Shown in pieces: positions 34,559 through 35,610 of a DNA stretch of 64,000 bases (its first letter is position 1; each line of letters starts with the position of its first letter). Below the pieces are notes generated by a model that worked only from the letters and a program-made list of their open reading frames with translations, was not told where the DNA came from and did not search any database. The translations under genes were made by a program, and so were the position numbers. The DNA comes from a virus. Taxonomy: Duplodnaviria; Caudoviricetes. The stretch lies in the IMG/VR virus record IMGVR_UViG_3300021963_000022; one strand, 5' to 3'.

Positions 34559-35386
34559 ATGTTAGACAACAATCCACTACGTCAATACTTTCGTAGACCA
34601 GCACTTTATTTAAAACTACCTAGCGGGGGAATAGGTTATCCTGCAGGAGCAATAGATATGCCTGATAACGGTGAATTACCAATTTACCCAATGACTGCTA
34701 TCGATGAAATTACTTGCAGAACACCGGATGCATTATACAACGGAAGTGCTGTTACAGAGATTATAAAAAGCTGTGCACCAAACATCAAAAATCCATGGGC
34801 AGTCAATAACATTGATTTGGATCCATTGCTTGTTGCTATCAAAATTGCAACCTCAGGTAATCAAATGGAAACCGATACCGCTTGTCCAAAATGCGATGAG
34901 GCAGCAAAATATGATGTAGACTTAGGTAGAATTCTTGCTGGGTTTGAAACTCCGGATTATCATTTACCATTAAGTATAGGTGAATTAGAAATCAAGTTTA
35001 AACCGCTAACTTACGACCAATTGAATAAAGCAAATGAAGCACAGTTTCAAGCACAAAAGTTAATGATGGATGTGTCTAGAATGGAAGATCAAATAGAACG
35101 TAATCATAAAACATCACAAGCACTAATTTCAATGAATGAAATGGCTATTGATGTTATGAGCTATACCATTGATTATATAAAGACACCTGAAGTTCAAGTA
35201 CAAGAACGTGAATATATAATGGATTACTTGAAGAATTGTGATGCTAAGATTTTTGATAGAATCAAAGGCAGAAACTTAGAGTTACGCAGATCCAGTGAGA
35301 CTAAACCATTACAATTTAAATGCGTCCACTGTCAAAATGAGTATGAGCAACCATTCACTATAAACATGACAGATTTTTTCGAATAA
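34559..35386 (+). CDS. gp26: Baseplate hub assembly / tail chaperone protein (T4 gp26-like)
   Basis: YLKLPSGG, PMTAIDEI, DLDPLLVAIKIATSG, CPKC and CVHC motifs; the ORF ends ...MTDFF-E. Confidence 0.75.
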   Translation: MLDNNPLRQYFRRPALYLKLPSGGIGYPAGAIDMPDNGELPIYPMTAIDEITCRTPDALYNGSAVTEIIKSCAPNIKNPWAVNNIDLDPLLVAIKIATSGNQMETDTACPKCDEAAKYDVDLGRILAGFETPDYHLPLSIGELEIKFKPLTYDQLNKANEAQFQAQKLMMDVSRMEDQIERNHKTSQALISMNEMAIDVMSYTIDYIKTPEVQVQEREYIMDYLKNCDAKIFDRIKGRNLELRRSSETKPLQFKCVHCQNEYEQPFTINMTDFFE

Positions 35387-35425
35387 AGCTTCTTTTCCTT
35401 AAGTCCGAGGAAATTCAGAAGCTTT
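35374..35425 (+). promoter_or_regulatory. Putative -1 ribosomal frameshift signal (T TTT TTC slippery heptamer plus 3' hairpin)
   Basis: Heptamer at 35374-35380. The hairpin pairs AAAGCTTCT (35385-93) with AGAAGCTTT (35417-25) and TTTCCT (35394-99) with AGGAAA (35408-13). Confidence 0.7.
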
Positions 35426-35610
35426 TAGATGATATGGAAAAGGACATCAACAACATTAAGCATGGGTCATTAAAGCTAGCTTGGTTTATGCGCGGAGGCA
35501 TTAGCTATACAGATATATTGAACCTAAGTGTTGGAGAAAGAGAAGCCATATCTAAGATCATTGAAGAAAACTTAGAAACTACGAAGAATACTAATTTACC
35601 ATTCTTCTAA
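35374..35610 (+). CDS. gp51-like C-terminal frame, probably expressed by -1 frameshift from the gp26-like ORF (possible internal ATG at 35434)
   Basis: The -1 frame reads FFRIKLLFLKSEEIQKLLDDMEKDINNIKHGSLKLAWFMRGGISYTDILNLSVGEREAISKIIEENLETTKNTNLPFF*. No Shine-Dalgarno sequence sits at a usable distance from ATG 35434. Confidence 0.75.
   Translation, partial: FFRIKLLFLKSEEIQKLLDDMEKDINNIKHGSLKLAWFMRGGISYTDILNLSVGEREAISKIIEENLETTKNTNLPFF

Follow-up and report, generated by a model that had tools for sequence, protein, structure and literature searches.

A probable programmed −1 ribosomal frameshift in a gp26-like baseplate hub gene of a T4-related jumbo phage, and its relation to genes 26 and 51 of T4

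How is a reading frame translated when it is conserved as protein, lacks a conserved start codon, and lies one base out of register with the gene that precedes it? This question is raised by a locus in a stretch of viral DNA of 64,000 nucleotides (Duplodnaviria; Caudoviricetes; IMG/VR record IMGVR_UViG_3300021963_000022), the whole of which is referred to here as the window. Within it, a gene resembling gene 26 of bacteriophage T4 ends in a run of T residues, and an open frame resembling the end of T4 gp51 overlaps this run in the −1 frame. A preliminary description, prepared from the sequence alone, proposed that the two are fused by a programmed −1 frameshift. From the comparisons described below we regard it as highly probable that a programmed −1 ribosomal frameshift takes place at the 3′ end of this single gene of the PF12322 family in a T4-related jumbo phage. 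We favour this reading because the slip site is conserved, the extension carries the signatures of a coding sequence, no start codon for it is conserved, and a hairpin downstream of the slip site shows covariation. Coordinates of all features are collected in Table 1.

The upstream open reading frame (ORF) encodes a protein of 275 amino acids, and the label of gp26-like that it had been given is borne out by a match to the Pfam family PF12322 (T4_baseplate) over residues 62–274, with an E value of 1.9e-10 and a score of 41.2 bits against a cut-off of 24.5. The PHROG family phrog_150, ‘baseplate hub’, matches the same protein at 4.6e-13. Searches of databases returned 1980 homologues, of which the top 120 are all 274–300 amino acids long. 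Four cysteines arranged as two CxxC pairs (C109, C112, C255, and C258) are nearly invariant in an alignment of 21 sequences that includes T4 gp26, and the two C-terminal phenylalanines, F273 and F274, are invariant in it. A blastn search of the phage collection with the DNA of the region gave no match; DNA nearly identical to the window is present in freshwater, lake, and other metagenomes. Scanning for sigma-70 promoters and terminators around the junction between the two frames identified nothing above background.

The 3′ end of the gp26-like ORF reads GAT TTT TTC GAA TAA. As had been claimed, it contains the sequence T TTT TTC in the register of a slippery heptamer of the X XXY YYZ type (frame GA-T TTT TTC), which places a Phe codon in each of the P and A sites. 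The preliminary description had suggested that the junction of heptamer and stop codon be examined across homologues, and an in-register heptamer is found in 87 of 87 related IMG/VR loci as well as in 19 named or deposited phage records. These records are a sample from deep lineages and, together with the window, make up the 20 lineages that were scored. In the related loci, whose proteins are 32–58% identical to that of the window, the heptamer is TTTTTTC throughout, the codon before TTT TTC is GAT, AAT, or ACT, and the 0-frame stop lies one codon past it in 84 of the 87. The same T TTT TTC is in register in Atu_ph07, Phosso, 7t3, RaK2, GAP32, CBB, 121Q, Vibrio 2.275.O, PA5oct, and a 595-kb uncultured phage, and T TTT TTT is in register in Xoo-sp13, RAS14, and RsoM2USA. 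One or other form (T TTT TTC/T) is also in register in S-PM2, S-CAM9, KVP40, HTVC008M, pf16, and Atu_ph04, with zero or one codon before the stop. The length of the T-run is six in the window, seven in Xoo-sp13 and RAS14, and nine in RsoM2USA.

Because the Phe-Phe dipeptide is itself constrained as protein, the choice among synonymous codons provides the fair test of a slip site, and only these choices argue for one. All 20 lineages use a codon of the form NNT followed by TTT, for which the joint probability is 10^-14.4 once the encoded residues of each lineage and the codon preferences of the same ORF are taken into account. The scored set includes phages richer in G + C in which TTT accounts for only 12–18% of Phe codons.

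Translation of the −1 frame from position 35374 begins FFRIK and continues for 78 codons, 76 of them beyond the two phenylalanines, to a TAA at 35608–35610, so that the frame does remain open for the 76 further codons originally reported. The predicted product sizes, 275 and 350 amino acids, are likewise correct from the coordinates of the ORF and of the transframe reading. This −1 frame is exactly 78 codons long in 86 of the 87 related loci, the remaining locus ending at a contig edge. It is open for 72–84 codons in the 13 jumbo-phage records that were examined first, and for 59–67 codons in S-PM2, S-CAM9, KVP40, HTVC008M, pf16, and Atu_ph04. The −1 peptide alone matches no Pfam or PHROG family. 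When it was used as a tblastn query, the matches in jumbo phages fell exactly at the 3′ terminus of the ‘baseplate hub’ gene and started from residue 1 of the query, which corresponds to the junction. An alignment of 17 lineages shows the extension to be conserved as protein from FFR onward, with a motif running from FFR-[LIMV]-x-L-L...E-x-[VI]-x-K-L through W/Y-M-R-G-G...ER; this conservation begins upstream of any start codon. Over the 47 columns that separate the 0-frame stop from the ATG of the window, diversity among 72 relatives is 0.375, 0.289, and 0.524 at the first, second, and third codon positions of the −1 frame. Diversity is thus highest at the third position, which is the pattern of a translated frame.

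The out-of-frame layout also appears to be maintained, since the top 120 homologues of the 275-residue protein have the length of the short product and no in-frame fused form was found when longer proteins in a collection of 5.8 billion were searched with the extension. The sole match to a longer protein in that search was a sequence of 145 amino acids, from a metagenomic contig of 716 nucleotides, whose last ∼35 residues are 75% identical to the closing part of the extension. Upstream of these residues it is unrelated, and the contig is possibly chimeric or recombinant.

The extension has only one candidate for a start codon in the window, an ATG at 35434, which is the sole ATG, GTG, or TTG before codon 22 of the −1 frame. 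Reading of the window sequence upstream of this ATG revealed nothing like AGGAG; by contrast, the ATG of the gp26-like ORF is preceded by such a motif. The earlier statement that the only plausible start lacks a ribosome-binding site therefore stands. The ATG is kept in 43 of 72 relatives and is replaced by TAC, TAT, TTA, TTG, or TTC in the other 29, and 17 of the 72 have no ATG, GTG, or TTG within the first 22 codons of the extension. In HTVC008M there is no Met among the first 25 residues of the extension. Start codons annotated for it in GenBank vary between records, and the one annotated in Atu_ph07 falls far inside the conserved region. The opposite pattern, in which homologues lack the heptamer and share a ribosome-binding site and start for the second ORF, had been named as grounds for abandoning the frameshift; what is found is that the heptamer is kept and that no start is conserved.

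A bulged hairpin had been described from four nucleotides past the heptamer, and folding with RNAfold confirms it, with 16 base pairs in place of the 15 first counted. Its predicted stability is −16.4 kcal/mol (z = −2.7), and one of 200 dinucleotide shuffles folds as well. Among 72 distinct relatives that align without gaps, 78.9% of the cells in stem columns 14–27 with 35–50 are paired, compared with ∼54% when the pairing is slid by one column. The covariation score of 0.261, against 0.215 in shuffles, was reached by none of 500, and seven pairs of the stem show changes on both sides. RNA.alifold produced no consensus structure from 73 sequences, because the register of the inner stem shifts from one sequence to another, that of the window included; covariation was accordingly counted on a fixed structure in place of a consensus fold. 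Across the 20 scored lineages, strong structure (z ≤ −2.9) is found in eight: the window, Atu_ph07, PA5oct, RsoM2USA, LR756511, S-PM2, S-CAM9, and Xoo-sp13, the last of which reaches the threshold only with one of the fold windows used. Conservation of the hairpin thus holds among close relatives and not among all lineages, and the hairpin is a clade-level feature rather than a universal one.

These features suggest the following sequence of events. A ribosome would reach GA-U UUU UUC with a tRNA-Phe in each of its P and A sites, where the stem-loop 4–6 nucleotides downstream probably pauses it. Most ribosomes would stay in frame and stop one codon on, releasing the short form, and a fraction would slip back by one base and add 76 residues to give the long form. 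The two products would share residues 1–274, with the extra residues of the long form making up a small helical module.

The two proteins that T4 encodes in this family give an indication of what these products may be. Both gp26 and gp51 match PF12322; in gp51 (249 amino acids) the match covers residues 1–201 at 3.9e-52 and is followed by a C-terminal tail of ∼48–49 residues. A profile of 40 fused proteins, whose transframe sequences were assembled in silico by script, was aligned by hhalign with a profile of 92 gp51 homologues from 17–339 to 6–248, continuously through the junction (Prob 94.6, E value 6.7e-8). The profile of the extension alone matches the gp51 tail (221–259) with an E value of 1.8e-4 and a score of 29.9, a score reached by none of 150 column-shuffled controls (13.1 ± 2.4, maximum 21.3). 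The label of gp51-like that had been attached to the downstream frame is upheld by this homology. Significance is obtained only with family profiles: hhalign against the single T4 gp51 sequence is weak (E value 0.028), and BLASTP of the window extension against T4 gp51 is not significant (E value 0.074). The transframe long form also contains the gp51-type tail motif Y-x-L-x-x-I-x-x-M-x-P-x-ER. The extension of S-PM2 is 48.8% identical to gene 51 of Aeromonas phage 25, and 575 phage records were matched in all. An AlphaFold model of the gp51 family (predicted local distance difference test, pLDDT, 91.4; predicted template modelling score, pTM, 0.86) represents the tail as four confident helices (196–249) after a mixed alpha/beta core. 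Precomputed annotations place the family PF28602 after PF12322 in gp51 homologues; our own Pfam scan of T4 gp51 did not include it.

From these alignments, the short form is taken to correspond to T4 gp26, which like it ends at the conserved FF, and the long form to T4 gp51, which is colinear with it including the C-terminal helical tail. The genetic arrangements differ. T4 has two divergently transcribed paralogous genes and the window has one gene with a −1 slip; T4 gp51 is one continuous frame, whereas the tail in the window sits in the −1 frame. T4 gp26 ends EFFELL, with the codons GAG TTC TTT and gene 25 directly after, and has no slip site. The extension is 76 residues long in the window compared with the ∼48–49 of the T4 gp51 tail, and the identity of the window protein to T4 is only ∼19%. 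Small ORFs that follow gp26 in cyanophages and KVP40, annotated as ‘gp51 / baseplate hub assembly catalyst’, represent this −1-frame extension, entered in the records as independent small coding sequences with ad hoc starts. The records of S-PM2 and S-CAM9 name this ORF gp51 or hub assembly catalyst, and in that of KVP40 the small ORF is noted to resemble 40 residues at the C-terminal end of T4 gp51.

Searches of whole records identified one PF12322 gene in each of S-PM2, KVP40, HTVC008M, and Vi01 and two in T4. In an unrooted maximum-likelihood tree built from the PF12322 domain, a single clade with support of 97/95 unites T4-type gp26 and gp51 and excludes KVP40, the cyanophages, pf16, Vi01, and the jumbo phages. 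Since gp26 and gp51 group together in this way, the frameshifting single gene appears to be ancestral, and the T4 lineage appears to have replaced the frameshift by gene duplication. Such a duplication would have ‘hard-wired’ the frameshift, with gene 26 keeping the short form and gene 51 the long form in frame.

Several observations weigh against the frameshift or against this history. The FF dipeptide is invariant at the protein level and is present even in T4 gp26, a protein made without frameshifting; protein constraint therefore explains part of the T-run. Salmonella phage Vi01 has a −1 extension (2240–2430) that follows an imperfect heptamer, A ATT TTC: its single gp26-like gene ends GAA ATT TTC ATT TAA, and the gp51-like tail lies in the −1 frame, unannotated in the record. 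With such a heptamer, the slip in Ackermannviridae may be non-canonical, or a different mechanism may operate. Twelve of the 20 lineages, 7t3, GAP32, and Atu_ph04 among them, show weak RNA structure or none (z > −2.9). All GenBank records inspected annotate two coding sequences, and S-PM2, S-CAM9, and KVP40 are among the lineages with an ATG at or just past the 0-frame stop, so that coupled re-initiation of a small separate protein is conceivable there. The clade that unites gp26 and gp51 contains long branches and the tree has no root, so the order of events is something that we infer. Some of these points would be expected if the locus simply held two genes, gp26 and a ‘gp51-like’ protein of ∼55–60 amino acids made by its own initiation or by termination and re-initiation, with the T-run merely encoding Phe-Phe; the small coding sequences that start a few nucleotides from the gp26 stop, and the retention of the window ATG in more than half of the 72 relatives, would then follow. 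This arrangement would leave the extension without a conserved start, and in the 17 close relatives described above without any start in the first 22 codons. It is also at odds with the protein conservation and third-position variation of the 20 residues before the ATG of the window, with the missing Shine-Dalgarno sequence before 35434, with the fixation of NNT TTT against codon usage, and with the fusion of the same module in frame in T4 gp51. We consider two separate genes improbable.

A −1 shift could also be produced before translation. If RNA polymerase added one U in the T-run, some mRNAs would encode the fused 350-residue protein in frame, and the outcome, a long form derived from the −1 frame, would be identical; the homopolymers of the window and, still more, those of Xoo-sp13, RAS14, and RsoM2USA offer a substrate for this. 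Efficient slippage by bacterial or phage-modified RNA polymerase usually needs at least 8–9 T residues, and by this measure the run of six in the window is short. Moreover, the conserved features are an X XXY YYZ register whose seventh position is C or T and, in the clade, a covarying hairpin at 4–6 nucleotides, and such a combination of register and hairpin is the signature of ribosomal slippage. Transcriptional slippage is likewise considered improbable, slightly more so than two separate genes. Least credible, to the point of being nearly negligible, is an error of assembly or sequencing in the homopolymer, or a decaying gene, with the real gene being an in-frame ORF of 350 codons. Homopolymers are error-prone and T4 gp51 demonstrates that an in-frame version is viable, but over 100 assemblies and isolate genomes, obtained independently in many studies, have the same out-of-frame layout, an independent DNA run from 2025 spans the junction with no indel, and the collection of 5.8 billion proteins holds no in-frame fused relative. 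Three metatranscriptome libraries yielded short contigs from both the ORF and the extension, none of them across the junction. On balance, a programmed ribosomal frameshift accounts best for the locus.

The preliminary description had linked the locus to lambda G/GT-type chaperones, in part through a tape-measure-like gene that is adjacent and divergent. Adjacency and divergence are as described; the identity of the encoded protein as a tape-measure protein (TMP) stands at the level of a lead, from protein clusters, a hydrolase domain, and synteny. The 847-residue neighbour matches no Pfam or PHROG family. Its nearest clusters in a protein language model are TMP families (0.93 and 0.92). It carries a C-terminal cell-wall hydrolase domain at residues ∼640–770; residues 639–759 match the lysin domain of a virion protein of phage EL. 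Reading by eye picked out a glycine-rich hydrophobic segment, a charged coiled-coil-like stretch, and a peptidase-like motif SxHxxGxAxD...HxH (SSHERGVALD...HFH) that looks like that of M15/VanY-type peptidases. The N-terminal half of the neighbour is conserved in 43 related loci, with position and divergent orientation unchanged, and in a 44th only the C-terminal part was matched. Jumbo relatives encode a large virion structural protein at the same place, which the RaK2 record calls a TMP-like virion protein. Prediction of a complex between the gp26-like protein and the N-terminal 470 residues of the neighbour gave a score of 0.01, which is uninformative either way.

According to Xu, Hendrix and Duda (2004), as cited in PMC9024508, a −1 frameshift is conserved in the tail assembly chaperone genes of long-tailed phages. 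The window resembles lambda G/GT in having a −1 slip at an X XXY YYZ site near the end of a small tail-assembly gene, in its two products, which share their N-terminal part and of which one is extended at the C-terminus, and in the position next to a tape-measure(-like) gene. By analogy with T4, its products too would be assembly factors and not parts of the virion: gp26 and gp51 are listed as T4 hub assembly chaperones that are needed for the central hub, and gp51 is required for assembly yet absent from the particle (PMC3004832). The window differs from lambda in that its protein is larger (275 amino acids) and has two CxxC pairs, and in that the TMP-like gene is divergent and not immediately downstream. 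The 275-residue protein matches no Pfam tail assembly chaperone family. Searches of the PDB with Foldseek and VIA-align, using models of the gp26-like protein of the window (pLDDT 71.6) and of the gp51 family, gave no convincing match, the best fold-search Z of 5.2 covering a helical hairpin only. There is no tube gene near the gp26-like gene in the window. In KVP40 and pf16 the order is a tube-fold gene, the gp26-like frameshift gene, and an unassigned ORF of ∼650 amino acids, which would match the classical arrangement of tube, chaperone, and tape measure; the 656-residue ORF of KVP40 has no significant similarity to T4 gp29. A function like that of G/GT is therefore an analogy from layout and from the T4 literature (PMC3004832), not membership of the same family. 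Under this analogy both forms would assemble the hub around the tape-measure protein, in a ratio fixed by the efficiency of the slip. The broader proposal is that the gp26/gp51 family supplies the pair of tail (hub) assembly chaperones long missing from T4-like myoviruses, ancestrally encoded by one gene with a −1 frameshift; on the present comparisons we would put this at about even.

PHROG and Pfam matches across the window indicate that it comes from a T4-related jumbo phage (Table 1). The T4-type late-promoter consensus TATAAATA occurs four times in the 64 kb, compared with 13 copies expected. Besides the site upstream of the gp26-like gene (34503–34510, +), these are at 8854–8861 (−), 40894–40901 (+), and 57903–57910 (+), and three of the four lie just upstream of gene starts, as judged from ORF positions. 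Placement upstream of genes fits the gp55-like sigma factor encoded at 39883–40785. Just after the gp6-like gene, an ORF of at least 4230 codons (51309–63998, +) runs off the end of the window and probably encodes a giant baseplate or fibre protein. Another large ORF, of 2209 amino acids (12164–18793, −), is situated among tail-fibre-like genes and has no PHROG match. A homing-endonuclease-like ORF (phrog_655, 1e-42; 25065–25844, −) adjoins the gene for the major head protein.

Table 1. Features of the gp26-like locus and of the surrounding window.
Feature	Coordinates	Strand	Remarks
gp26/gp51-family baseplate-hub assembly protein, 0-frame ORF (short form)	34559..35386	+	275 aa (amino acids); PF12322 match
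Shine-Dalgarno AGGAG of the gp26-like ORF	34549..34553	+	5 nt (nucleotides) before the ATG; read from sequence
Slippery heptamer T TTT TTC (X XXY YYZ), Phe codons in P and A sites	35374..35380	+	in 0-frame register
0-frame stop TAA	35384..35386	+	one codon after the heptamer; read from sequence
Stem-loop, 16 pairs and 3-nt bulge, likely frameshift stimulator	35385..35425	+	RNAfold, covariation
−1 extension, gp51-type C-terminal helical module	35374..35610	+	transframe 350 aa = join(34559..35380, 35380..35610)
TATAAATA, T4-type late-promoter consensus	34503..34510	+	49 nt upstream of the gp26-like start; putative function
Divergent 847-aa tape-measure-like protein with C-terminal cell-wall hydrolase domain	31949..34492	−	lead-level evidence
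Major head protein	25932-27128		PHROG/Pfam match
Prohead protease	28275-28913		PHROG/Pfam match
gp20-like portal	30143-31933		PHROG/Pfam match
gp46/47-like nuclease	36737-39825		PHROG/Pfam match
gp55-like late sigma factor	39883-40785		PHROG/Pfam match
gp5-like hub/lysozyme	44502-47420		PHROG/Pfam match
gp25-like wedge protein	47440-47889		PHROG/Pfam match
gp6-like wedge protein	47937-51293		PHROG/Pfam match

The mechanism proposed here is a classical one; the gene family, the breadth of the mechanism across T4-like phages, and its replacement by genes 26 and 51 in T4 appear to be undescribed. A search of full-text literature, with subscription-only papers outside its reach, found no report of frameshifting in gp26 or gp51 genes, and none of the database records inspected carries a join or a ribosomal-slippage annotation. 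This has consequences for annotation, where hundreds of phage genomes are affected and the long form is missing, or split off as a bogus small ORF, in every record inspected. For the study of recoding, the locus adds a family of −1 sites, U UUU UUC/U with tRNA-Phe in both sites, that is large, deep, and easy to score. Strong downstream structure seems to be missing from around half of the lineages, a point relevant to how the slip is stimulated.

For decades it has been unclear what gp26 and gp51 do in assembly of the T4 hub. If they are regarded as the two products, short and long, of a single ancestral gene with a frameshift, a concrete, testable model follows, in which the two proteins share a core, the long form carries an extra helical module, and the forms act at a fixed ratio. 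The family is also a likely case of a recoding site replaced by gene duplication. If this is true, the rule of Xu, Hendrix and Duda for frameshifting in tail chaperone genes would extend to the one large group of long-tailed phages that was thought to lack it, and T4 would illustrate from nature how recoding can be resolved through duplication and subfunctionalisation.

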